This document shows, piece by piece, positions 2,430 to 40,229 of a stretch of DNA of 64,000 bases. Location of the stretch: positions 33,232,001 to 33,296,000 of the forward strand of contig NC_091476.1 in the NCBI RefSeq assembly GCF_036971445.1, read 5' to 3'. The translations under genes were made by a program, and so were the position numbers. The notes under the pieces are model-generated. The model worked only from the letters and a program-made list of their open reading frames with translations. It did not search any database and was not told the origin of the DNA. Origin of the DNA: Narcine bancroftii. Taxonomy: Eukaryota. Position 1 is the first letter of the stretch. Each line of letters starts with the position of its first letter.

Positions 2430-5400
2430 TAAGTATATCTAAATGAATATATTTCAAATACAGAGACCACTTACTAACAAAAGAAGAATAATTATCATGT
2501 AAATTATAGCTAATTTTTTTCCATAACAATACATACTTTCAATTCATTGTGCCAGTGTAATATATTAATCTCAGTATCATCTTTCCAAGTACTAGCAACA
2601 CATTTATGCGCTACTGATAACACCAAAAGTACAAAAGCAATTTGAATTTTATCCATTCCCATTCCCCTTAATGAATACAAATTACCCAACAAAAAAAAAT
2701 CATTGGATCTAATAGTAATAATATAAAATTATATAATTTTTCCAAAACTACTTTGATTCCTTGCCAAAATGATTGAACTTTAACACACGTCCAAACGGCA
2801 TGTTAAAATGTTCCAATACATGAGCCACATCTAAAACAAGAATCCAAATTTCTAAACCCATATATATTTTAGCTTTTCTGGGGTCAAATATAATTGATGT
2901 AAAAAATTATAATTAACCATTCCATATCTTACATTAGTCAATTTAATTACATTATCCTGACACATAGTCACCAAATCATCTTCAGGAAAAGTAAATACTA
3001 AATCACTCTCCCATTTAAGTTTAGATTTCTCCCAATCCGGCTTATTCATACTATCTTGTAACAAATTATACATAACTGAAATATAACCCTTTTTCTATAT
3101 AGAGAAAATCAAAGATTCAAATCTCAACAAAGTAGGTAAAATCATCTCTCTACCATAATTATCTTTTATCAAAGCTCTAAGTTGATAATACACAAACAAA
3201 GAATTTACAGGTATAATTGATTAAAAGAAATAAATTTCCCTTCTTCAAAACAATCCTGTATTGTCCTTATACCTTTAGAGTCCCAAATCTTTAAATGATT
3301 ATTAAACATTGAAAAAGGGATAAACTGATTATTATACAATGGAGTTAGAATTGATAGTTTATCTTTTGATCCTAATGCCCTATTTTCTTTAATCCAAATC
3401 TTTAACACATGTTTCAATATCGGCATATCATATTCATGTAATAAAATCAAATTCCAATGAAATATAAATTCATGTATCCCAACCCTAGGAATACATGCCA
3501 TCTCCACTTTAGCCCAGCTGGGAGGCTGATCTAAATCCATCAATTTACTAACAATTACTAACAATTACTAGCAATTACTAACAACTGGTCTGCTTCATAA
3601 TAATTTTGAAAATGTGGTAACTGTAGTCCGCCCAATGCATACTTCCATGTAAATCTATGCAACGCCACTCAAGCTAATTTACCTTTCCATAAAAACTCTC
3701 ATTCTGCTTTATTCAAATCTTGAAAGAAACCCTTTGGAAGTAAACAAGGTATTGACTGAAATAAATATTGAATTCGAGGAAAAATATTCATTTTAATACA
3801 ATTAATGCAACCAATCAAAGTTAATGGAAGATCTTTTCACTTAATCAAATATGCTTTAACCAGTCTTAATATAGGCACATAATTTAATTGATATAATGAT
3901 GATAATTAGTATCCATAAACACACCTAAATATTTAATTTTACTTGTCCACCTTAATTTTGAAATAGGTTTAAATTCAGAATAATCTCCTACTCCAACTGG
4001 TAAAATTTCACTTTTATTCCAATTATATCCCGATAATTCTCCAAATGTCGACAAAGACTGTTGCAATTGTTTCAACGATCGTTGCGGTTTTGACAAATAT
4101 ATCAACACATCGTCCGCAAATAAATTAATTTTATATTCTTTGTTCTTAACCCTCATCGCTCTAATTTCTTCATTTTGCCTAATAGCCTGAGCTAACAGTT
4201 CAATAGCCAATGCAAATAAGTCTGGTGACAATGGGCAGCCCAGCCGAGTTGAATGAGTCAATTTAAATGGTAAAGTAATCTGTCCATTTGTCACCACCCT
4301 AGCAATCAGGTTCGTATATAAAGCCTTAACCCAACCAATAAAAAAGGGCCAAATTTAAATTTCTCTAACACTTTAAATAAAAAATTCCCACTCAAACCTA
4401 TCAAAGGCTTTTTCTGCATCTTTCAGTATGCATTGACCAAGGTAATTCATCGAAATATATTGTCTGAAGCATTTCTATTCTTAATAAAACCTGTTTGATC
4501 AATATGTTCCAATTTTGTAAGTATTTAGCAAATACTTTTGCTATAATTTTATAATCTACATTTAATAAAGAAATAGGTCTGTATGAAGACATTTTTAATG
4601 GATCTGTATCTTTTTTTGGAATAACAGTTATTAAAACACTTGTACATGATTCTGGTAACTTCTGATCTTCAGTAACTTGATTCAACACTTCTCCAAATAC
4701 ATTAGAGAAATCATCATAAAATGTTTATAAAATTCCACAGGGGACCTTCCATTAGGCATTTCCTGAATAGCTTCCTTAATTTCAAAATCCATAAATGGAG
4801 ATTCCAATTCCTGAACATCATTCCCATCTAATACCGATAACCTTAGTTTAGATAAGTAAGAGTCAATGGAACCATTATCCTGTTTACCCTCAGAAGTATA
4901 TAATTTTAGATAAAATGAATAAAACTGATGGTTAATTTCCTGAGGTTTATAAGTAACTTTTGAATTCTTCTTAACAGCATTAATAGTCCGAGATACCTGT
5001 TCAGCTTTCAATTGCCAAGCAAGTACCTTATCAGCTCTTTCCCCAACTCAAAATAATGTTGTTTAGATCGATTAATTAAGCGCTCAAACTGATAAGTTTG
5101 TAAAGAATTATAACATAATTTCAATTTTGCTAATGCGGCTTTTTTATCTTCTGTTACATCTTTCTGAAAATTTTTCTCTAACTCAGCAATCTGATTTTAT
5201 AACTCTAAACATTCTGCCATATATTGTTTCTTAACTTTCGTAGAATAACTAATAATCTTCCCCCTGAAATAAGCTTTTAAAGTGTCCCATATTACAAAAT
5301 GACTATCCACAGAATTAACATTCTTGATCAAAAATAAAGAGATATGCTCTTTAACAAAAGTAACAAACTCTGTTTTTTTCAATAACATTGTGTTAAACCT

Positions 5401-8021: not shown

Positions 8022-8682
8022 AATAAATCACTGTTATTTAAGCAACTGTAAATATTGTTTTTAACCACTTTTATGCTTTTTAAAACCAGGTATTTCATAA
8101 TCCAGCTGGGGAAAGGTGGAATACATGTCTTTCTTCTACACCATCTTGCCACGCCCCCCTCTTGTGTGTCTTGCTGCAAATTATATTTCAGAACCCAGTG
8201 AAAGGCTTTTGGGTATTTTATTAAAGATACAAAACAAATGCAAGTTGATCTTGGTGCCAGGGAGTTTTTTTGCCCCACTAATATTTATCAATGTCAAATC
8301 TAAAGTATGTGATTGATTTAAAAAAAATATTTAGTTCTGCAGAGGTTGGTTAATTTTCAGAAATCATAAACATACTATATAAAGACTTCCTTGATTCACT
8401 GCTCTCTAGTTTTAATATTCCATCATTCTGAACAGAAACACAATTTGTATAAATTTTTAATGTAAGAATTACTTCAGTTAAAATAATTGCTTGACTCCGC
8501 AAAGCTCAAAATATGTCCTTTTTTTTTGATTAGAATACATTCGTAATTGATGCAACCATATTTTCATTTTAAGTCAATTTCTGAGCACGGCATATTTTCA
8601 TTCTGGTTGATCCTTTAGACAGATCCAAAAGGTACAAAATATAATGTAGAGAGCAGGAAACATAATTATATTTTTAATGATA

Positions 8683-20488: not shown

Positions 20489-23470
20489 TCAGTACCCTGT
20501 TCCAGCTCTCTCTCTCAATAATCCCTGATTCCCCTAGTCACAAGTACTAAATCTAACTCTCTCTTAAATATATCTATGGAACCAGCCTCAATGACTTCCT
20601 GTGGCAGAGAATTCCATAAATTCACCACCCTCTGAATGAAAAAATTCTTCCTCATCTCAGTCCTAAAGGACTTCCCCTTTATCCTTAAACTGTGACCCCT
20701 GGTTCTAGACTTGCTCAACATTGGGAACAATCTTCTTGCATCTAGCCTGTCAAATCCCTTAAGAATTTTGAATGTTTCTATTAAATCTCCTCTTAATCGT
20801 TTAAACTCCAGCGAGTACAAGCCCAGTCCTTCTAGCCTTTCTTCATATGCAAGTCCCACCATCCCTGGTATCAATCTGGTCAACCTTTTCTGCACTTTCT
20901 CCATGGCAATGATGTCCTTCCTCAGATAAGGAGACCAAAACTGAACACAATACTCCAGGTGAGGTCTCACCAAGGCCCTATACAATGCATCAATACCTCT
21001 CTGCTCCTGGACTCAAATCCTCTTGATATGAATGCCAACATACCATTCACCTTTTTTACTGTTTGCTGCACCTGCCTGCCCACTTTTAATGACTGATGCA
21101 CAGCGACACCCAGGTCTCTTTGCATCTCCCCTTTTCCTAATTGGATACCATTAAGATAGTACTCAGCCCTCCCATTCTTTCCTCCAAAGTGGATAAGCAC
21201 ACACTTATCCACATTATATTGCATCTGCCATGCATTTACCCACTCACCCAACCTGCCCAAGTCACCCTGCACACTCTTAACAGCCTCTACACATCTTACA
21301 ATCCCACCCAGTTTCGTGTCGTCTGCAAACTTGGAAATGCTGCTTTCTATTTCCTCATCTAAATCATTAATATATATCGTAAATAACTGGGGTCCCAGCA
21401 CTGAGCCTCGTGGTACCCCACTAGTAACTGACTGCCATTCCAAAAAGTACCTATTTATTCCTACTCTTTGCTTCCTATCTGTCAACCAATTCTCTATCCA
21501 CCTCAATACCATATCCCCTATACCGTGTGCCTTAAGTTTGTATAGTAATATCCTGTGTGGGACCTTATCAAAGGCCTTCTGAAAATCCAGGTAAACCACA
21601 TCTACTGGTTCTCCCCTATCCACTCCACTAGTTACATCCTCAAAAAATTCAATAAGATTAGTCAGACACGATTTTCCCTTCATAAAACCATGCTGGCTTC
21701 TGACTAATTAATTCACCACTTTCCAGATGTGCTGCAATCACATCTTTAATAACTGACTCTGACAATTTCCTCACTACCAATGTCAAGCTAACCAGTCTAT
21801 AATACCCTGATTTCTCTTTCCCTCCCTATTTAAAAAGTGGAGTTACATTAGCCACCCTCCAGTCCTCAGGAAATACTCCAAAATCTAAAGAGTTTTGAAA
21901 AATTATCAACAATGCATCCACTATTTCATGGGCTTCCTCCTTTAGCACTCTGGGATGCAGACCATCTGGCCCTGGGGACTTGTCTGCCTTTAATCCCTTC
22001 AATTTATCCAACTCAACCTCATAACTTGCACTTATTTTCCGCAGTCCTTCCATCACATTAGCCCCATGGTCCCCTATTATTTCCTGAAGATTATTCATAT
22101 TTTCCCTAGAGAAGACCGAACTAAAGTAGTTATTTAATTGGTCTGCCATGTCCTTGTACCCCATGACCATTCACCTGTGTCTGACTGCAAGGGACCCACA
22201 TTTGTCTTTACTAGTCTCTTTCTCTTTACATATCTATAAAAACTTTTGCAGTCATTTTTTATGTTCCCTGCCAACTTTCTCTCATAATCTCTTTTGCCTT
22301 TCCTGATTAATCCCTTTGTCTTCCTCTGTAGAACTCTGAATTTCTCCTAATCCTCTGGTTTTCTATCTTTCCTGGCAAGTCTATATGCTTCCTCTTTACA
22401 CTTGATACTCTCCCTGATTTCCCTTGTTATCCAAGGATGTACTACCCTCCTTGAGTTATTATTTTTCCAAACTGGGATGAACAAATGCTGTATTTCATCC
22501 TGGTGATTCTTAAATGCTTGCCATTGCCTTTCTACAGTTAATCCTTTAAGTAACATTTGCCAATCTAACTTAATCAATTCGTGTCTCATACCCTCAAAGT
22601 CACCCTTCTTTAAGTTCAGAACCTGAGTTACAGAATTAACCCTGTCACTTTCCATCCTAATATAAAATTGCACCATATTGTGGTCACTCTTGCCCAAAGG
22701 GCTTCGCACAACAAGATAGTTAACTAACCCTTCCTCATTACTCAGAACCCAGTCTAGGATGGCCTGTTCCCTTGTTGGTTCTTCAACATACTGGGTTAGA
22801 AAATTATCCCGTATACCTTCTAAGAAATCGTCCTCTTCAATACCCTTACCAATTTGATTCATCCAGTCTATATGGAGATTAAAGTCACCCATTATAACTG
22901 CCTTGCCTTTGTTGCACGCATTTCCAATTTCCTGTATAATGCCATCCCCAACCACTCTACTACTGTTAGATGGTCTATATACAACTCCCACTAACGTCTT
23001 CTGCCCCCTTGCATTTTGCAGCTCTACCCACATTGATTCCACATCATTCAACCTAACATCCCTCCTTTCTATTGCTTTTAACTCCTCTCTAACCAACAAT
23101 GCTACCCCACCTCCTTTTCCTTTCTGTCTGTCCCTCCTGAATATTGAAAATCCATGAATGTTAAGCTCCCAGCTTTGGTCCTCTTAAAGCCATGTCTCTG
23201 TGATCCCAACTATATCATAGTCATTTACAGCTATCTGCACATTCAAATCATCCACTTTATTACGAATACTCCTTGCATTAAGACACAAGGCCTTCAAGCT
23301 TGTTTTTACCAGAGCCTTAACCCTATCACCATTATGCTGTAAAGCGGCCCTTTTACATTTTTGCCCAGTTACCTGTCTGCCTCTTTTGCTTTTCCTCCTC
23401 CTATCTCTGACTTCTTCCCTCATGCTAAACCCCTCTGTCTCTCTACTCCTGATCCTATCCCCCTGCCACA
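20489..23470 (-). pseudogene. CR1 ORF2 (APE endonuclease plus RT), frameshifted
   Basis: CLNARSIRNK, GITETWL, MGDFN, SDHN, KSPGPDGLHP, LDFQKAFDKV, KFADDTKL, LEYCVQFWSP. Confidence 0.95.
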
Positions 23471-24433
23471 TTAGTTTAAACCTTGCCCAACAATACCTCC
23501 AAACACACTTCCGAGGGCATTGATCTCGGTCCTGCCCAGATGGAGACCATCCTGTTTGAACTGATCCCATCTGCCCCAGAACTTATTCCAATGCCCCAAG
23601 AATCTGAACCCTTCCCACCTACACCACTGTTCAAGCCACATATTCATTCTATCTATCCTGCAATTCCTACTCTGACTAGCTCGTGGCACTGGCAATAATC
23701 CAGAGATTATTACCCTAGAGGTCCTACTCCTTAACTTCCTTCCAAACTCCATAAATTCTGCTTGTAGGACCTAATCCCACTTTTTTCCTTTGTTGTTGGT
23801 ACCAAAATGGACCACAACAGTTGGCTGTTCACCCTCCCCATCCAGAATGCCCTGCAGCCGCTCCGTGATATCCCTGACCCTTGCACCCGGGAGGCAACAC
23901 ACCAACCATGAGTCCCGTTTACGGCCACAGAAGCTCCTGTCTATTCCCCTTACAATTGAATCCTCTATGACTATTGACCTACCACTCTTTTTCCAGCCCT
24001 CTTGCACGGCAGAGCCACTCACATTGCCCTGACCCTGGCTACTACTGCCTTCTTCTGTTGGGCCATCTCCCCCAACAACATCCAAAGTGGAATATCTGTT
24101 TTTCAGGGAGATGACCACAGGAGACTCCTGCACTACCTTCCTGTTCTTACTCTTACCCTTGGTCACCCAGTCCCTATCTCTCTCAACTCTATGAAGCTGT
24201 GGTGTGACCAACTCACTAAAGGTGTTATCCACCAAATCCTCAGCACCCCAGATGCTCCAGAGCGAGTCCATGAGCAGCTCCAGTGCCGTCATGCGATCAA
24301 TCAGGAGCTGCAGCTGAACACACTTCCTGCACATGTAGTTCCCAGGGACACTGTCAGTCACCCTGAGTTCCCACATGACACAAGAGGAGCATGGCACTAG
24401 ATTGAGCTCACCTGCCATGTCTAAAATGACCAC
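23471..24433 (-). pseudogene. CR1 ORF1: zinc finger/leucine zipper plus SGNH esterase domain, interrupted
   Basis: CSSCVMW...CRKCVQLQLL, IVIEDSIVRG, CCLPGARVRD, VVHFGTNN, DGLHL; a frameshift and stop near 23770. Confidence 0.9.
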
Positions 24434-27449: not shown

Positions 27450-28064
27450 TGCATAGGTTTAAATTGTCCATATTTCAGAAGATGTCATCAAGAGCCAGGT
27501 CATCGAGGTGACCATAAAGAAGGTATGACTTGACTTTCTCAGGAGTCAGAGGAGATTTACCATGTTTTCAAGCAATCTATCAAACTTTTACAGGTGCACT
27601 GTGGAAAGTGCTAGTTATATCATATTCTGGCTTAGGAACACAAATGTCCTGGAACGTAGAAGGTTCCAGAAGGTAGAAAACATAGCCAAGTCGATCATAG
27701 ACTCTGACTTCTCATCCATTGAATACATCCATGTGAGTCACTGCCTTCTTAAGGCAGTCAAAATCACTCTAGTCACTGCTACCTTTGGACAGGAAGTATA
27801 GAAGCATCTCTGATGCCAAGAACAGTTTCTTTTCTACAGCTATCAAATTCATGAACCTCCCCATGACACATTAATCATGGACTGCTCCAACACCATAAAA
27901 GTATGCACAATTTCAGTTTTTTTTGCATCAGGAAAATTGTGAATATTATCCATTTTTTGTATTTATTGTCTTATAATTACATATTTTCAGTCGTTTTTTT
28001 TTTACAACTGACCTGTTCAGATGCAGTAAAAAAGAATGTTGATGAATGTATCATGTATATGATG
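27450..28064 (+). mobile_element. Rex-Babar LINE 3' fragment (Gypsy insertion target)
   Basis: LSNFYRCTVES, RRRFQKVENIAKSII; the tail resumes at 32587-32780. Confidence 0.7.
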
Positions 28065-28303
28065 TGTGATAGTACAGATTCTATCACCAATGTGTACATG
28101 TACATATGTACAGATGGTAGTGTAGGATGACTGTGATTGGCTGAGAGCGTAGCCACACCAACTGGCAGGTCTTAAAGGATTGCTCCTAGCCAGACCAGGT
28201 CATTCTGGACTGGTCGACCTACTTGTGATATGCTCCAGTCTTTTAGTTAATAAAAGCCTTGGTTTGGATCAACAAGTTTTTAGTTCTTTCGACGTGCATT
28301 ACA
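28065..28303 (+). repeat. 5' LTR (239 bp)
   Basis: TGTGAT...ATTACA, AATAAA at 28249; the first 82 bp recur at 32505. Confidence 0.9.
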
Positions 28304-28304
28304 A

Positions 28305-28319
28305 TTTTATTAACTAAAA
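28305..28319 (+). promoter_or_regulatory. Self-complementary primer-binding site candidate
   Basis: TTTTATTAACTAAAA is the exact reverse complement of LTR positions 28241-28255; there is no TGG-type tRNA PBS. Confidence 0.75.
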
Positions 28320-28334
28320 ATAAATTTTGAAGGG

Positions 28335-31300
28335 ATGGAGCGTTTGCTATGGCTAGAACGCCTCGACATTGACACACAGTCAGCTACAGCCTCGAATGAC
28401 TTTAAGCACTGGGTGAGGTGGTTCGAAACATTCTTAAACATTCTCTGATCCTGCCGTGTTAGAGGACAGCCATCGACTACTAATATTGATGACTATGGTG
28501 TCCCTGAGAGTCTACCAGAGTGTCCAGGATGCAACCACTTACGCTGCAGCCATGAAGTTGCTGAAAGGGCTCTACGAGCGACCAGTGAACAGGGTCTGTG
28601 CTCGGTACAAACTTGCTACAAGGAGGCAACAGCCCAGTGAGTCCTGTAAAGCTTATATTCAGGCACTAAGGGCAATGGGCAGGGACTGTGCCTGCACAGA
28701 GAGAACTGCTTCAGAGTCCACAGATGATCTCATTCGGGATGCCTAGGTGGCCAGGGTTCGATCGAATGAGGTGAGGCAGCGCCTGCTAGAGCACGGGGGA
28801 GAAAATCTAGAGGACGTGATCCGGATCGCAGAGACGATGGAGGCTGCGGTCTTAAGTATGGACATGTACTCTCGGGGCTGGACCACACACTCTGATGTGA
28901 GTAGGATGCCCTCCCTCTACCCTACTACTGCCGCTACGCTGCCCGATGCAACCCCAAAGTGTTATTTCTGCAGGAGGAGCAAGCACAGCAGGTCCCAGTG
29001 TCTGGAGAGAAAAGCCAAGTGCCAGAAGTGCCTTAAAAACAGCCACTTTGCTGCAGTCTGTCGTTCCAAACTGGCCACTCTCAAATACAGTGCCTCGTGT
29101 GAAGCCCATTCGCCACTCTCCATTTCAAACACTTCTTCCTCAGAGCTCTCTTCCAATGAGAGCGAGGCCTCCACCGCGCGGCAGTGCCTGATGTCACGGG
29201 GCAGACACCGAGCGCGCAAGGTACAACCCACCCTCGCCGCAATGACATTCACCCTAACGTCCAACCAGGCCCCAGCCCTGATCTCAATGCCAGCAGCCGC
29301 CACTGACCAGGGACCCACCACCGCCGTCGACCAGGGACCCATCGCTGCCAACCAGAGACCCGCTGCTGTCAACCAGGGACCCGCCACCACTGCCGACAAG
29401 GGACCTGCCGCCGCTGCCGACCGGGGACATGCCGACACTGCCAACCCGGTACCTGCTGACACTGCCATCCGGGGACCCGGCACCGCTGACCACCCCACCA
29501 CCGACGACAAGCAGTGACCCCCAACTCTTATCTTTGGCTTCAGGCAGCAACACCATCTCCCGACACTGTTTTTCCAGGCCCCACTGTTTGCGTGACGTCA
29601 TCACACACACGTTGCGTGACGTCATCAAGTAGGTCTCCACTGTCTACATTACAAGTCTCTGCATCAATAACCCCTGACCAGGACTTCCCCCAGCCTCTCA
29701 CAAAAGCAATGGAACTGATTAAAGTGCATAGTCACTATACCACTTGCTTATTTGACTCTGGGTCAACTGAGAGTTTTATCCGCCCAGACCTGGCCCACCA
29801 TTGCAGACTAGCTATTCTCCCCATTACACAGAGAATTTCATTGGCGAGCAGATCACATTCTACTGGGGTAAAGGGGTGCTGCGTGGCGACCCTGAAAGTC
29901 CAGGGCATCATGTTCACAGACTTCAAACTATTAGTTCTTCCCCAGTTGTGCGCCCCTGCTCTGCTGGGACTGGATTTTCAGTGCCAATTTCAAACCATTT
30001 CCCTGCACTTTGGGGGGCCTCACGCTCCACTCTCTGTCTGTAACCACTCCACCCCGGGAACCTCCTGCCAGCAGCAGCCCGAGCCACCCGCCCCCACGCC
30101 CTGGGGCCTCACCTGTAGTCTCTCTACCCTCCCAGTTGCTCTGCCAGCACTTTTTGCAAATCTCACCCCTGGCTGGAAGCCTGTGGCCGCCAAAAGCCGG
30201 CAATATAGTTCTGAACACAGGAAATTTATCACAAATGAGGTGCGCAGACTGCTGGATGAGGGCATTATCGAACCTAGCTTGAGTCCATGGAGGGCCCAGG
30301 TAGTAGTTGTTACAAACGGGGAGGAACCGCGGATGGTGGTTGACTACAGCCAGACAATCAACCGCTTCACACTTCTGGATGTGTACCTCCTTCCACGGAT
30401 CATGAATGTGGTGAATCAGATCACCCAATACTGTGTATTTTCCACCATTGACTTATGTTCGGCCTATCATCAGCTCCCGATCTGCCGAGAAGACTGACCT
30501 TTCACGGCCTTCGAGGCGAATAGGCAGCTGTATCAATTCCTCAGGGGTCACAAATGGTGTTGCGGTCTTCCAGCAGGAAATGGACCAGATGGTGGACCAG
30601 AACGGGCTGACTGCTATTTTCCCGTATCTGGACAATGTCACCATCTCCGGCCATTTCACGGAGGATCATGATGCCAACCTTGAGAAATTTTTTCAGACTG
30701 CACTTGTCTTCTGGACCACTCGGCTCGCAATTCTGGGCTGTGTGGTGGAGAACGGGGTGGTCATGCCGGACCCTGACTGCATGCGAAGGCACTCAAACGC
30801 AGCCTGGGTTTTTTCTCTTACTATGCCCAATGAGTTCCACACTTTGACGACAAGGCATGGCCACTCATCAAGACTACCTCCTTCCCCCTGTCAACCAAAG
30901 CCAAAGCGGCCTTCGACCACATCAAATCGGACATTACTGCTGCAATGCTGCACGCCATCGACATGTCCATTCCGTTCCAAGTCGAAAGCGATACGTTTGA
31001 CTTTGCACTGGTTGCCACTTTGAACCAGGCCGGTCGGCTGGTAGCCTTCTTCTCCAGAACCCTCCAGGGTCCTGACAGCCGACACTCCTCTGTCGAGAAG
31101 GAGGCCCAGGCCATAGTCGAGGCAGTACGTCATTGGAGACACTACCTCACTGGCAGGTGCTTTACACTGCTCACCGACCAATGCGCGGTCTCCTTCATGT
31201 TTAGCAATTCCCAGCGAGGTAAGATCAAGTATGACAAAATCACCAGGTGGAGAATCGAGCTCTCCACCTTTAATTATGACATACTGTATCGGCCAGGTAA

Positions 31301-32463
31301 ACTCAATGACCTGCCAGATGTGCTCTCCAGGGGGACTTGTGCCAACATGCAACTGGACAGGCTACAGAAACTCCACAAGGAGCTCTGTCATCCTGGGGTC
31401 ACTAGGTTCGCGTACTTTGTCAAATCTCGCAACCTGCCTGACACAGTTGAGGAGATTCACTCCATGACCTGGGCCTGCCCAGTGTGCACTGAGTGCAAGC
31501 CCCACTTCTTCCGTCCGGAGAACACCCACACCATCAAAGCCACCCGCCCCTTTGAGCATCTCAGCGTAGACTTCAAGGGTCCCCTACCGTCGACCAACCA
31601 TAACACCTACATCATAACGGCCATCAACGAGTACTCCCGCTTCCTGTTCGCTGTGCCCTGCTCGGGCATGACTGCCTCCTCAGTCATAGATGCACAGCAT
31701 CTTTGCCATCTTTGGGTATCCCAGTTACATCCACAGTGACAGAGGGTCCTCGTTTATGAGCGCGGAGCTGCGTCAGTACCTTCTGGAGCGTGGTATTGCT
31801 TCAAGCAGGACCACCAGCAATAACCCATGGGGTGATGGGCAAGTCGAAAGAGAGAATGCCACCTTCTGGAAAGCGGTTACGCTTGCCCTCCGATCCAAAG
31901 GTCTCCCCACCTCTTGCTGGCAGGATGTGCTCACTAGTGCCCTACACTCCATCCGCTCCCTCCTATGCACCGCAACCAATGCCACCCTTCGTGAAAGGAT
32001 GTTCTCTTTCCCAAGGAAATCTGAGTCGAGTACGACCATACCGGCATGGCTCACAGTTCCCAGTCCAGTCCTTTTACGACGCCACGTCCGGTACTCTAAG
32101 AATGACCCCTTGGTTGACCGAGTGACTCTGCTCCATGTGAACCCGCATTATGCCTACGTTGAGTACCCAGATGGACGGGAGGATACAGTCTCGGTAAGGG
32201 TCCTAGCCCAAGCTGGATCAGATGCAGCAGTGCCTTTAACCCAACCTCCCCCTATTCCTTCTCCCCCAGGTCATGTGCTTGAACAGATGGACCAGCAACA
32301 CCTCACCAGCTCAGGCCAGACTGTCGACAACGGCATTGGGAAATTGAGCAAAGCAGTGGCCACACCATACAGGCCTGCCGGCGACACGACTCTGGCGACC
32401 CCAATCCCGGCGCCATGACGGTCATGCCGAATGGTCAGACCCCCTGACCGGTACAGCCCCTAA
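28335..32463 (+). pseudogene. Gypsy gag-pol polyprotein, disrupted
   Basis: Gag LATRRQQPSES and CYFCRRSKHSRSQC/CQKCLKNSHFAAVC knuckles; PR LFDSGS; RT PWRAQ, VVDYSQTIN, YLDNV; RH SSVEKEAQAIVEA; IN LHKELCHPG..CPVC, VDFKGPLP, HSDRG, GQVERENA. Confidence 0.93.
29290..29515 (+). repeat. Coding minisatellite (21-24 nt units) in the gag C-terminus
   Basis: GCCGCCACTGACCAGGGACCC-like units encode AAATDQGP/TAVDQGP/AAVNQGP repeats. Confidence 0.85.
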
Positions 32464-32490: not shown

Positions 32491-32504
32491 AAAGAAGGGG
32501 TGAA
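32491..32504 (+). promoter_or_regulatory. Polypurine tract
   Basis: AAAGAAGGGGTGAA lies directly before the 3' LTR. Confidence 0.85.
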
Positions 32505-32586
32505 TGTGATAGTACAGATTCTATCACCAATGTGTATATGTACAGATGTACAGATGGTAATGTAGGATGACTGTGATTGGCTGAGA
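32505..32586 (+). repeat. Truncated 3' LTR
   Basis: Matches 28065-28146 with 3 substitutions in 82 bp, then stops abruptly. Confidence 0.9.
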
Positions 32587-32760
32587 CACCATAAAAGGAT
32601 GCACAATTTCAAAGTTTTTTTTGCATCAGGAAAATTATGAATATTATCATTTTTTTGTATTTATTGTCTTATAATTACACATTTGCAGTCGTTTTTTTTA
32701 ACAAATGACCTGTTCAAATGCAGTAAAAAAGAATGTTGATGCATGCACCATGTCTGTGAT
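32587..32760 (+). repeat. About 170-bp direct duplicate of the left flank 27891-28064
   Basis: CACCATAAAAG.ATGCACAATTTC...AAAAAAGAATGTTGATG is present on both sides of the Gypsy. Confidence 0.92.
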
Positions 32761-33729: not shown

Positions 33730-36400
33730 AACTGAATGGTGCATCAACATGGCCTCGCACTCAATGTCACCAAAACCAAGGAGCTGATAGTTGCCTTCAG
33801 GAAGCGAAAACCAGAGGTATACAATTCAGTGATCATTGGGGTATCAGAAGTGGAGAGGGTGAGCAAATTTAAGTTCTTGTCCAGACCCAGCATACTAATG
33901 GCTTTGTGAAAAAAGTGTATCAGCTCCTCTACTCACAGGTGTGTTGAGGAGACCTTGGCAAATCAGAAACTTTGGCAAATTTCGACAGATGTATGATGGA
34001 AAGTGTGCTGACCAGCTGCACCATAGTCTGTTATAGGGACACTAATACCCCTGAGAAGAAAACCCTGCAAAAGGTAATGGAAACAACCCAGAATATCAAA
34101 ACCTTCCCTACCATTGAGCACATCTACAGGGAACACTGCCTTTGGAGAGCAGCAGCAGTCATCAAAGACCCATACCATCCAGCACATGGTCTGTTCTTGC
34201 TGCTGCCATTAAGAAAAGGTATAGAGGACACAAAACTCACTCCACCATGTCCAGGAACAGTCATTACCCCTCCACCATTAGAATCCTCAACAGTAAACTA
34301 AATTCTTTGGCTTGGCTTCGCGGACGAAGATTTATGGAGGGGGTAAAAAGTCCACGTCAGCTGCAGGCTCGTTTGTGGCTGACAAGTCCGATGCGGGACA
34401 GGCAGACACGATTGCAGCGGTTGCAGGGGAAAATTGGTGGGTTGGGGTTGGGTGTTGGGTTTTTCCTCCTTTGCCTTTTGTCAGTGAGGTAGGCTCTGCG
34501 GTCTTCTTCAAAGGAGGTTGCTGCCCGCCAAACTGTGAGGCGCCAAGATGCACGGTTTGAGGCGATATCAGCCCACTGGCGGTGGTCAATGTGGCAGGCA
34601 CCAAGAGATTTCTTTAGGCAGTCCTTGTACCTTTTCTTTGGTGCACCTCTGTCACGGTGGCCAGTGGAGAGCTCGCCATATAACACGATCTTGGGAAGGC
34701 GATGGTCCTCCATTCTGGAGACGTGACCCATCCAGCGCAGCTGGATCTTCAGCAGCGTGGACTCGATGCTGTCGACCTCTGCCATCTCGAGTACTTCGAC
34801 GTTAGGGATGTAAGCGCTCCAATGGATGTTGAGGATGGAGCGGAGACAACGCTGGTGGAAGCGTTCTAGGAGCCGTAGGTGGTGCCGGTAGAGGACCCAT
34901 GATTCGGAGCCGAACAGGAGTGTGGGTATGACAACGGCTCTGTATACGCTTATCTTTGTGAGGTTTTTCAGTTGGTTGTTTTTCCAGACTCTTTTGTGTA
35001 GTCTTCCAAAGGCGCTATTTGCCTTGGCGAGTCTGTTGTCTATCTCATTGTCGATCCTTGCATCTGATGAAATGGTGCAGACGAGATAGGTAAACTGGTT
35101 GACCGTTTTGAGTTTTGTGTGCCCGATGGAGATGTGGGGGGTCTGGTAATCATGGTGGGGAGCTGGCTGATGGAGGACCTCAGTTTTCTTCAGGCTGACT
35201 TCCAGGCCAAACATTTTGGCAGTTTCCGCAAAGCAGGACGTCAAGCGCTGAAGAGCTGGCTCTGAATGGGCAACTAAAGCGGCATCGTCTGCAAAGAGTA
35301 GTTCACGCACACGTTTCTCTTGTGTCTTGGTGTGAGCTTGCAGGCGCCTCAGATTGAAGAGACTGCCATCCGTGCGGTACCGGATGTAAACAGCGTCTTC
35401 ATTGTTGGGGTCTTTCATGGCTTGGTTCAGCATCATGCTGAAGAAGATTGAAAAGAGGGTTGGTGCCAGAACACAGCCTTGCTTCACGCCATTGTTAATG
35501 GAGAAGGGTTCAAGGTTTTATCGGTTTTTACTTTTTTTTCAAATAATCCATCTTTGCTATGCCTTTTCTCTTGTAAACCCAAATAGCTCAACAGTTATTT
35601 GGAGAAAAATCAGTGGCCAAATGTGTTTTTTTTTAAATCCTGAGGGTGGGAAAAGTAAGATTTTTTTGTTGGGACCAAGGTAAACTGCCTCAGGATCTTC
35701 GTGATGCCACCATCATCACCCTGTACAAAAACAAAGGCGAGAAATCAGACTGCTCAAACTACAGGGGAATCACGTTGCTCTCCATTGCAGGCAAAATCTT
35801 CGCTAGGATTCTACTAAATAGAATAATACCTAGTGTCGCCGAGAATATTCTCCCAGAATCACAGTGCGGCTTTCGCGCAAACAGAGGAACTACTGACATG
35901 GTCTTTGCCCTCAGACAGCTCCAAGAAAAATGCAGAGAACAAAACAAAGGACTCTACATCACCTTTGTTGACCTCACCAAAGCCTTCGACACCGTGAGCA
36001 GGAAAGGGCTTTGGCAAATACTAGAGCGCATCGGATGTCCCCCAAAGTTCCTCAACATGATTATCCAACTGCACGAAAACCAACAAGGTCGGGTCAGATA
36101 CAGCAATGAGCTCTCTGAACCCTTCTCCATTAACAATGGCGTGAAGCAAGGCTGTGTTCTGGCACCAACCCTAAACTAAATTAGGGACTCGTTTAAGGAC
36201 TTATTTATGCACTTTATTTGCTTTGTTTTCCTCTCTATATTGCAAAGTTTGTTTGTATTTCTTTATTTGCTTATCAGTGTACATTGTGTACAGTTTTAAA
36301 TTTCCCGACCCTTAAGTGCTAATTCTGTATTGCCCACAGGAAGAAAAGAACCTCAGGGTGGTATGTGATGTCATCTAAGTACTCTGACAATAAATCTGAA
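33730..36400 (+). mobile_element. Rex-Babar LINE interrupted by an RTE insertion (34305-36171)
   Basis: KTKELIVAFRK, NFDRCMMESVLTSC, IKDPYHPAHGLFLLLP; the 3' UTR resumes at 36183 and ends GACAATAAATCTGAAATC. Confidence 0.8.
34305..36171 (-). mobile_element. Young RTE-clade LINE copy 1, 5'-inverted, with captured local DNA
   Basis: Uninterrupted ORF 34357-35487 (QGCVLAP, LFADD, C-terminal CNRC..H..C), a 157-bp insert, and an inverted segment at 35665-36171. TSD TAAACTAAATT at 34294-34304 and 36172-36182. Confidence 0.95.
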
Positions 36401-38349: not shown

Positions 38350-39822
38350 CTTTCTTTGGCTTGGCTTCGTGGACGAAGATTTATGGAGGGGGTAAAAAGT
38401 CCACGTCAGCTGCAGGCTCGTTTGTGGCTGACCAGTCCGATGCGGGACAGGCAGACACGATTGCAGCGGTTGCAAGGGAAAATTGGTTGGTTGGGGTTGG
38501 GTGTTGGGTTTTTCCTCCTTTGCCTTTTGTCAGTGAGGTGGGCTCTGCGGTCTTCTTCAAAGGAGGCTGCTGCCCGCCAAACTGTGAGGCGCCAAGATGC
38601 ACGGTTTGAGGCGTTATCAGCCCACTGGCGGTGGTCAATGTGGCAGGCACCAAGAGATTTCTTTAGGCAGTCCTTGTACCTTTTCTTTGGTGCACCTCTG
38701 TCACGGTGGCCAGTGGAGAGCTCGCCATATAATACGATCTTGGGAAGGCGATGGTCCTCCATTCTGGAGACGTGACCCATCCAGCGCAGCTGGATCTTCA
38801 GCAGCGTGGACTCGATGCTGTCGACCTCTGCCATCTCGAGTACCTCGCCGTTAGGGGTGTGAGCGCTCCAATGGATGTTGAGGATGGAGCGGAGACAACG
38901 CTGGTGGAAGCGTTCTAGGAGCCGTAGGTGGTGCCGGTAGAGGACCCATGATTCGGAGCCGAACAGGAGTGTGGGTATGACAACGGCTCTGTATACGCTT
39001 ATCTTTGTGAGGTTTTTCAGTTGGTTGTTTTTCCAGACTCTTTTGTGTAGTCTTCCAAAGGCGCTATTTGCCTTGGCGAGTCTGTTGTCTATCTCATTGT
39101 CGATCCTTGCATCTGATGAAATGGTGCAGCCGAGATAGGTAAACTGGTTGACCGTTTTGAGTTTTGTGTGCCCGATGGAGATGTGGGGGGGCTGGTAGTC
39201 ATGGTGGGGAGCTGGCTGATGGAGGACCTCAGTTTTCTTCAGGCTGACTTCCAGGCCAAACATTTTGGCAGTTTCCGCAAAGCAGGACGTCAAGCGCTGA
39301 AGAGCTGGCTCTGAATGGGCAACTAAAGCGGCATCATCTGCAAAGAGTAGTTCACGGACAAGTTTCTCTTGTGTCTTGGTGTGAGCTTGCAGGCGCCTCA
39401 GATTGAAGAGACTGCCATCCGTGCGGTACCGGATGTAAACAGCGTCTTCATTGTTGGGGTCTTTCATGGCTTGGTTCAGCATCATGCTGAAGAAGATTGA
39501 AAAGAGGGTTGGTGCGAGAACACAGCCTTGCTTCACGCCATTGTTAATGGAGAAGGGTTCAGAGAGCTCATTGCTGTATCTGACCCGACCTTGTTGGTTT
39601 TCGTGCAGTTGGATAATCATGTTGAGGAACTTTGGGGGACATCCGATGCGCTCTAGTATTTGCCAAAGCCCTTTCCTGCTCACGGTGTCGAAGGCTTTGT
39701 GTCGCTGAGAATATTCTCCCAGAATCACAGTGCGGCTTTCGCGCAAACAGAGGAACCACTGACATGGTCTTTGCCCTCAGACAGCTCCAAGAAAAGTGCA
39801 GAGAACAAAACAAAGGACTCTA
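38350..39822 (-). mobile_element. Young RTE copy 2, 5'-inverted
   Basis: Sense part 38350-39699 is an open ORF; inverted part 39699-39825. TSD CATGGAATTAT at 38339-38349 and 39823-39833. Confidence 0.95.
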
Positions 39823-40229
39823 CATGGAATTATACCACACAGATAAATAATCCTTTGGCACACCATCTGCATTCCAGCAATAAAGGACTATCATTTCTAG
39901 TCCCATATACAAGCACTTGATCCATGTCTTATCAAGTGAAATACTTTTCTAGATACTTTTTAAATGTTGTAAAAGACTCTGGCTTCAGTAACCCCTCAGA
40001 TGCGTGACCCAGATTCCAGCCCTCTCTGGATATAACAAATCTTCCCATTTTCTTACTCCTGATTTTAATTTGAAGCTTCTTTCTGTTTATCCTGTCTCAA
40101 ACATATTTCCCCTCATCCTCTCTCTCTCCATTCCCTGTGCATCCATTCTTTCCTCAAAATTAAAAGCTCCCATCCATGCTTCATGATGTTATTGAATGAG
40201 TTCTCTCCCTTACATTCTATGCCCTGTCT

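Follow-up and report, generated by a model that had tools for sequence, protein, structure and literature searches.

A primer-binding site complementary to its own LTR suggests self-priming in a non-chromovirus Ty3/Gypsy lineage of animals, with fold-back LTR fossils in the genome of Narcine bancroftii

The window analysed here is a stretch of 64,000 nucleotides from Narcine bancroftii (contig NC_091476.1, positions 33,232,001 to 33,296,000), and it contains one copy of a Ty3/Gypsy retrotransposon (Table 1). The element family has the protease, RT, RNase H and integrase order, TG...CA LTRs, polypurine tract and short target duplications (5 bp in young sister copies) of that group. The window copy is decayed, with broken coding frames and a 3' LTR that ends at 82 bases, and its LTR end was taken from other copies because of this truncation. 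It lacks a 5-bp target duplication. In its place, ~174 bases of the left flank (27890-28063) recur directly after the cut 3' LTR (32586-32760; 159/173 identical), which suggests a non-standard insertion or a later rearrangement. Elsewhere in the window are two 98% identical non-LTR retrotransposon copies with long open frames (34303-35959 and 38352-39825, minus strand) and minus-strand fragments of another, with endonuclease- and RT-like frames (21826-24433).

Table 1. Features of the retrotransposon copy; coordinates are those of the window.
Feature	Position	Strand	Remarks
5' LTR	28065..28303	+	239 bp, TG...CA; boundary common to the 30 best copies
LTR arm, predicted self-primer	28241..28255	+	G at 28246 (position -10) invariant; AATAAA at 28249-28254
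Predicted cut, border of arm and second helix	28255..28256	+	inferred from the stacked helix in predicted folds; sequence at fold-back junctions picks up again with the last base of the arm
Primer-binding position	28305..28319	+	complementary to the arm; no TGG
gag region	28335..29517	+	interrupted by stops
pol pieces	29490..32418	+	protease, RT, RNase H, integrase order; several frameshifts; no chromodomain
YLDN RT motif	30625-30636	+	inside the pol pieces
Polypurine tract	32492..32504	+	sister-family copies end alike
3' LTR, first 82 bases only	32505..32586	+	79/82 identical to the 5' LTR

The original prediction described a 15/15 match between the bases following the LTR and a segment inside it, an LTR end at 28303 and a missing TGG, and all three were confirmed. 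A single A (28304) separates the LTR end from a primer site that is the exact reverse complement of the arm, there is no TGG among the first 8 bases past the LTR, and none of 200 dinucleotide shuffles of the LTR yielded a duplex as long as the observed 15 bp. The window family is abundant, with 3978 LTR-leader candidates in the genome, and an arm-region pattern covering this family and a sister family has 12,327 exact matches. The full duplex is kept in 26 of the 30 best window-family copies (window included), and the remaining four have 13 or 14 pairs. In the younger sister family of the same genome (G000), reading frames are long and open, Gag carries two CCHC knuckles, and the LTRs of a pair are as much as 100% identical, with 5-bp duplications.

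The closest named protein homologues are from rays and catsharks, and more distant ones come from corals, anemones, a nematode, insects, a sea slug and a tunicate. A search of IMG/VR returned no relatives, and the 4 loci in GTDB contigs all lacked a usable LTR. Gypsy pol also occurs in contigs and records labelled as bacterial metagenome assemblies (L131-L134; P0075, P0135, P0169), probably as animal contamination. Among 80 metagenome loci, 60 lacked an LTR pair and 20 had a repeat pair. We set aside L115 (not an LTR), L062 (a flank repeat ranked first), L124 (rearranged arm region, no duplex) and L065, in which the LTR pair (4218-4400, 8450-8632) is inverted relative to the pol match, and omitted L057, L063, L098, L106 and L122 as same-family repeats.

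The pairing can be compared across 15 elements with 14 different arms, drawn from this genome and from metagenomes; some were chosen since the duplex was visible, and 3 of the 15 came in via the duplex scan itself. The suggested check, covariation of the two 15-mers among related families, bore out the pairing: arm and primer site change together. Within an element they pair at 12.7/13 on average, compared with 8.4/13 when an arm is set against another family's site, and none of 208 such cross-family pairings is complete. Pair type switches at -4, -6, -7, -9, -11 and -12, numbered as in Table 1. The arm is 13-16 bases long across the lineage, pairing begins 2 bases past the CA that ends the LTR, and all 15 elements have G at -10 and A at -2. 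Metagenome relatives at 48-67% RT identity have identical geometry in different letters.

The same pattern recurs among close relatives. Excluding three of 20 young G000 loci without a correct LTR pair (L031, L032, L050), a 14-16-bp duplex is found in 17/17 young sister-family copies, with two changes mirrored on both sides. Single mirrored changes separate L061 from L066 and L051 from L053, and one marks a third subfamily in G000 (L189-L191). Not every change is compensated: 11 G000 primer-site variants comprise three in a subfamily with one mirrored change, one with that change and a mismatch, and seven that are unmirrored, and in two elements a change at -10 is unmirrored. A blind duplex scan gave 39 matches (redundant offsets counted) in 114 kb upstream of pol versus 4 in 188 kb of pol. 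For comparison, the self-duplex is at most 6 bp in 10/10 Mag-type control elements that have an LTR pair in this genome, although these are old copies and several boundaries are imprecise. A TGG primer site is absent in 13/13 lineage elements and was seen next to the LTR in 4/10 of the Mag-type controls.

In predicted folds of the leader, the arm pairs in cis with the primer site with high probability in most families, and in 10/13 elements a second helix is stacked against the arm's 3' end. A three-duplex pretzel of the Tf1 kind was not found, with leader-to-loop pairing no better than in shuffles in 13/13 (best 22 of 300), and the U5-end duplex stands out in 1/13. There is no TATA box at the expected place in 12/13 elements. 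Two lines of reasoning bear on where the RNA, and with it the primer, may start. The invariant G after pyrimidines suggests a primer 5' end at -10 or -11. Pairing to -13 or beyond, taken with the modelled fold probabilities, suggests -13 to -15; for the window copy the predicted pairing probability is 0.09 if the RNA starts at -11 and 0.98 if it starts at -15. Contigs from four sequencing runs presumed to be RNA show neither a transcript start nor an end. A primer built by splicing was considered and rejected, as unspliced sequence pairs at -13 in 15/15 and the bases at -11/-10 are AG in 10/15 and TG in 5. The 5' LTR of one locus (L117, about 940-1000) has an intron-like stretch (GTGAGT, a pyrimidine tract and CAG) just upstream of the arm.

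This is a decayed copy of a Ty3/Gypsy element, and we propose that its minus-strand synthesis was probably primed, as in Tf1, by its own LTR arm after the predicted cut. The RNA would start near the arm's 5' end (-10 to -15), and the leader would fold so that the arm pairs with the primer site. RNase H would then cut at 28255/28256, where the second helix begins, and the released 3'-OH would be extended through U5. If the primer remained attached, it could be copied into the plus strand, and the 3' end of that strand could anneal to an arm instead of undergoing the second strand transfer, generating palindromes.

Such products appear to be preserved in the genome. In one locus (L184), a 278-bp tandem array, the LTR end, the A and the primer site run on as the reverse complement of the pre-arm sequence. 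Exact searches recovered 273 fold-back junctions, 111 of the young family and 162 of the window family, some of them within arrays, and no reversed junction patterns in the same searches. Of these, we examined 90 from the young family and 30 from the window family. In 70 of the 90 young-family loci the inverted part reaches LTR base 1-4. LTR palindromes, consisting of a full LTR followed by inverted U3-arm sequence, make up 23/90, and 18 of these 23 are flanked by 5-bp target duplications. A further 34/90 are chimeras of minus-sense internal sequence, a short plus-sense LTR piece, the A and the inverted arm plus U3, and the remaining 33/90 take other forms. Where both ends of a chimera are visible, two have 5-bp duplications, a third matches at 4/5 and four more are unscorable.

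Where the chimeras switch to LTR sequence may indicate where the RNA began. In 34/34 young-family chimeras the start of the plus-sense LTR piece lies in the range -14 to +30, with none further upstream; in a mixed set, 1/22 starts at -18. This limit suggests an RNA 5' end near the start of the arm, and it could also come from a GC clamp in a DNA hairpin. The starts are spread without a peak at the predicted cut: 2/34 lie at +1 and 15/34 extend into the arm. Because of the target duplications and att-type ends, we infer that the fossils are integrase-inserted products of reverse transcription, and not assembly errors or chromosomal inversions. Their form fits what would be expected if plus-strand DNA ended in a primer copy and annealed to an arm. 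What the fossils by themselves show is a DNA 3' end placed at the primer site, not an RNA cut. The inference of self-priming in the original prediction gains support from compensatory changes across families and from these fold-back products, and we regard it as likely.

Several other arrangements were noted among the junction loci. Tandem arrays with a 278-bp unit, each unit with LTR and fold-back junction, lie on C11 near 238.65 Mb (L184, 262-3401), with similar spacing seen on C1, on C9 and at other places on C11; the arrays constitute an LTR-derived satellite at several sites. A second fold-back occurs at one recurring U5 point, ~23 bases past the predicted cut, in L217, L291, L303 and L235. 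Eleven loci (L200, L210, L261, L264, L267, L280, L281, L295, L305, L306, L310) have a full LTR and, after it, a short inverted segment with a recurring stop at about LTR bases 149-167, close to a predicted hairpin in U3; in L200 and L210 the sequence then jumps forward into gag.

Could the primer come from elsewhere than the 5' leader? Self-priming might use the arm of a second RNA, or the element's own 3' end within the 3' LTR, so that no cut of the 5' leader in cis would be needed. This would accommodate the 15/34 chimeras with arm bases left on the template side, at least four in 10 cases, and the two of 30 window-family loci (L242, L252) in which the inverted part passes U3 into the internal region. 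It sits poorly with the 70/90 inverted parts that end at LTR base 1-4, since stopping there indicates a plus-strand DNA template and not a long RNA primer, and with the high predicted probability of the cis fold. We consider priming in trans or from the 3' LTR, the main variant of the self-priming model, unlikely.

The duplex might instead serve to hide the 5' poly(A) signal while something else primes. In HIV-1, a poly(A) hairpin hides the 5' signal, and in retroviruses closeness to the cap may also silence it. AATAAA or ATTAAA lies within the arm in 8/15 elements and most arms end in TAAA-like sequence, as hiding would have it. However, three of the 15 (L051, L052, L120) have a canonical hexamer past the 3' end of the arm, where the duplex does not cover it, and 4/15 have none in arm or loop. 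A masking helix needs neither the fixed 2-base offset from the LTR end nor G at -10, no alternative primer site was seen, and the fold-back products place the 3' end of a DNA strand at the primer site. We judge masking as the purpose of the duplex to be quite improbable. The dual-purpose switch of the original prediction, with the signal hidden in the 5' LTR and free in the 3' LTR, is likewise unsupported as a general function; masking is possible in the window element, is not lineage-wide, and would be at most a side benefit in some families. Priming by a host RNA (a tRNA fragment, snRNA or other), with the LTR match a chance or by-product, is very improbable and already largely refuted by the covariation, given a site that varies among families while tracking the LTR arm base by base, the missing TGG, the absence of any Rfam match in 27800-28700 and the 0/200 shuffles.

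Does an element of this kind belong with Tf1/sushi? The original prediction saw no chromodomain and proposed, with an RT phylogeny as the check, that the element may lie outside that lineage, and the domain searches and trees agree with it. There is no chromodomain in the six ORF pieces of the window, in the 1457-aa sister-family polyprotein (L038), in six long lineage proteins (a control, P0366, shows one), or among the precomputed domains of 120 long homologues. The YLDN motif, offered as a pointer to lineage, proved not to be diagnostic, YLDD (29) being commoner than YLDN (16) among 80 lineage representatives. We built trees of RT (58 sequences) and RT-RH-IN (51 sequences), in which outgroups, some of them gappy, were labelled by motif against a published alignment (available part of PMC2871265) and not by name. 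Chromovirus outgroups were drawn from unnamed representatives because G000 gave no match to a chromovirus-type RT pattern and few (16) chromodomain matches.

The lineage is recovered with support of 1.0 and a long stem in both trees, and chromovirus-type sequences form a clade that excludes it (0.97 RT, 1.0 RT-RH-IN). With the lineage placed as sister to the one sushi-type sequence, the AU test rejects the tree (p 0.03-0.04) and the SH test does not (0.06-0.08); a sister position to the chromoviruses as a whole is compatible with the AU test (p 0.20-0.33). The RT topology that scores best joins the lineage to Mag (AU p 0.83), a grouping with support of only 0.29 in the RT-RH-IN tree. Judged from these sequence comparisons, the lineage lies outside Tf1/sushi and is only weakly tied to Mag. 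It may already be named, for example as one of the MolGy clades; motif and term searches of the available text and supplements of PMC12471100, PMC6238403, PMC2774666 and PMC8556966 found no clade name.

In the parts of the literature that were accessible, self-priming has been demonstrated in Tf1, with predictions for related chromoviruses and for one Copia lineage of plants; searches found it only for Tf1/sushi, Tcn1 and TAR, with no report for this lineage and none of fold-back LTR palindromes. A separate, widespread, probably self-priming lineage of animals bears on the idea that hairpin priming preceded tRNA priming (available sections of PMC3601003). Tentatively, we suggest that a large, old, non-chromovirus lineage of animal Gypsy elements might have evolved self-priming independently or kept it from before tRNA priming, with a leader that lacks a TATA box and whose start site, primer and often poly(A) signal share ~15 bases, and that frequent fold-back of the primer copy could have given rise to hundreds of LTR palindromes inserted by integrase, and to tandem arrays derived from LTRs, in a vertebrate genome. 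Self-priming elements would escape host control by tRNA fragments, and annotation tools that require a tRNA site would be expected to mis-annotate them. Fold-back insertions offer a sequence-only test of self-priming applicable to any family, and reveal a route from retrotransposons to palindromes and tandem arrays in host genomes.

Among known systems, Mag is similar in its proteins. Two CCHC knuckles in Gag are typical of Mag, and the lineage shares them. Its RT has a one-residue insertion against Ty3, and the D[YF]-[YF]P spacing is 12 residues, as in Mag, Jule, Gulliver and Fugitive, compared with 11 in Sushi and Maggy (by eye, from the accessible alignment in supplement 3 of PMC2871265). 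Unlike the lineage, the Mag-type elements of the same genome lack the self-duplex, and some have TGG adjoining the LTR. The flatworm elements Saci2/lennie are likewise non-chromoviruses with a single Gag-Pol frame and primer sites that vary among families (available text of PMC12471100). According to the accessible parts of PMC4558846 and PMC2582038, lennie has a tRNA-Leu site and 4-bp target duplications, and Saci-2 a CCCH Gag motif. We rejected identity with Saci2/lennie, from which the lineage is set apart by reported features, not by sequence: 5-bp duplications, CCHC knuckles and no TGG.

Other parallels are in priming. For the TAR lineage (Houba and Osr-1, plant Ty1/copia) and Tcn1, self-priming is predicted from at least 10 LTR-complementary bases starting 0-5 after the LTR (available portion of PMC6317226). 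The lineage shares this self-LTR complementarity just after the LTR. TAR is a Ty1/copia lineage of plants and Tcn1 is Tf1/sushi kin; the lineage described here has its domains in Gypsy order and occurs in animals. With Tf1/sushi it shares the lack of a tRNA site, a primer site that pairs with its own LTR, a predicted RNase H cut and apparent retention of the primer copy. The Tf1 primer is 11 bases long. In the available text on the Tf1/sushi group (Tf1/Tf2 of Schizosaccharomyces pombe, Tj1 and Tosmo1-3), there is no tRNA site and the self-LTR-complementary primer site follows the terminal CA (PMC4600332, PMC11042837, bioRxiv 2022.12.06.519325), and about half of the Tf1 cDNA keeps a primer-site copy in single-stranded form (PMC11042837). 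Unlike Tf1/sushi, the lineage lacks both a chromodomain and a Tf2-type SH3 domain, forms a separate clade in both trees, shows neither TATA box nor three-duplex pretzel, and often holds a poly(A) signal in its arm. Its hosts are invertebrates and cartilaginous fishes, whereas a review, in its accessible sections, places no chromoviruses in invertebrates (PMC2774666). The structure is real and conserved, and probably represents a variant of a known mechanism in a different lineage, accompanied by a new line of genomic evidence.
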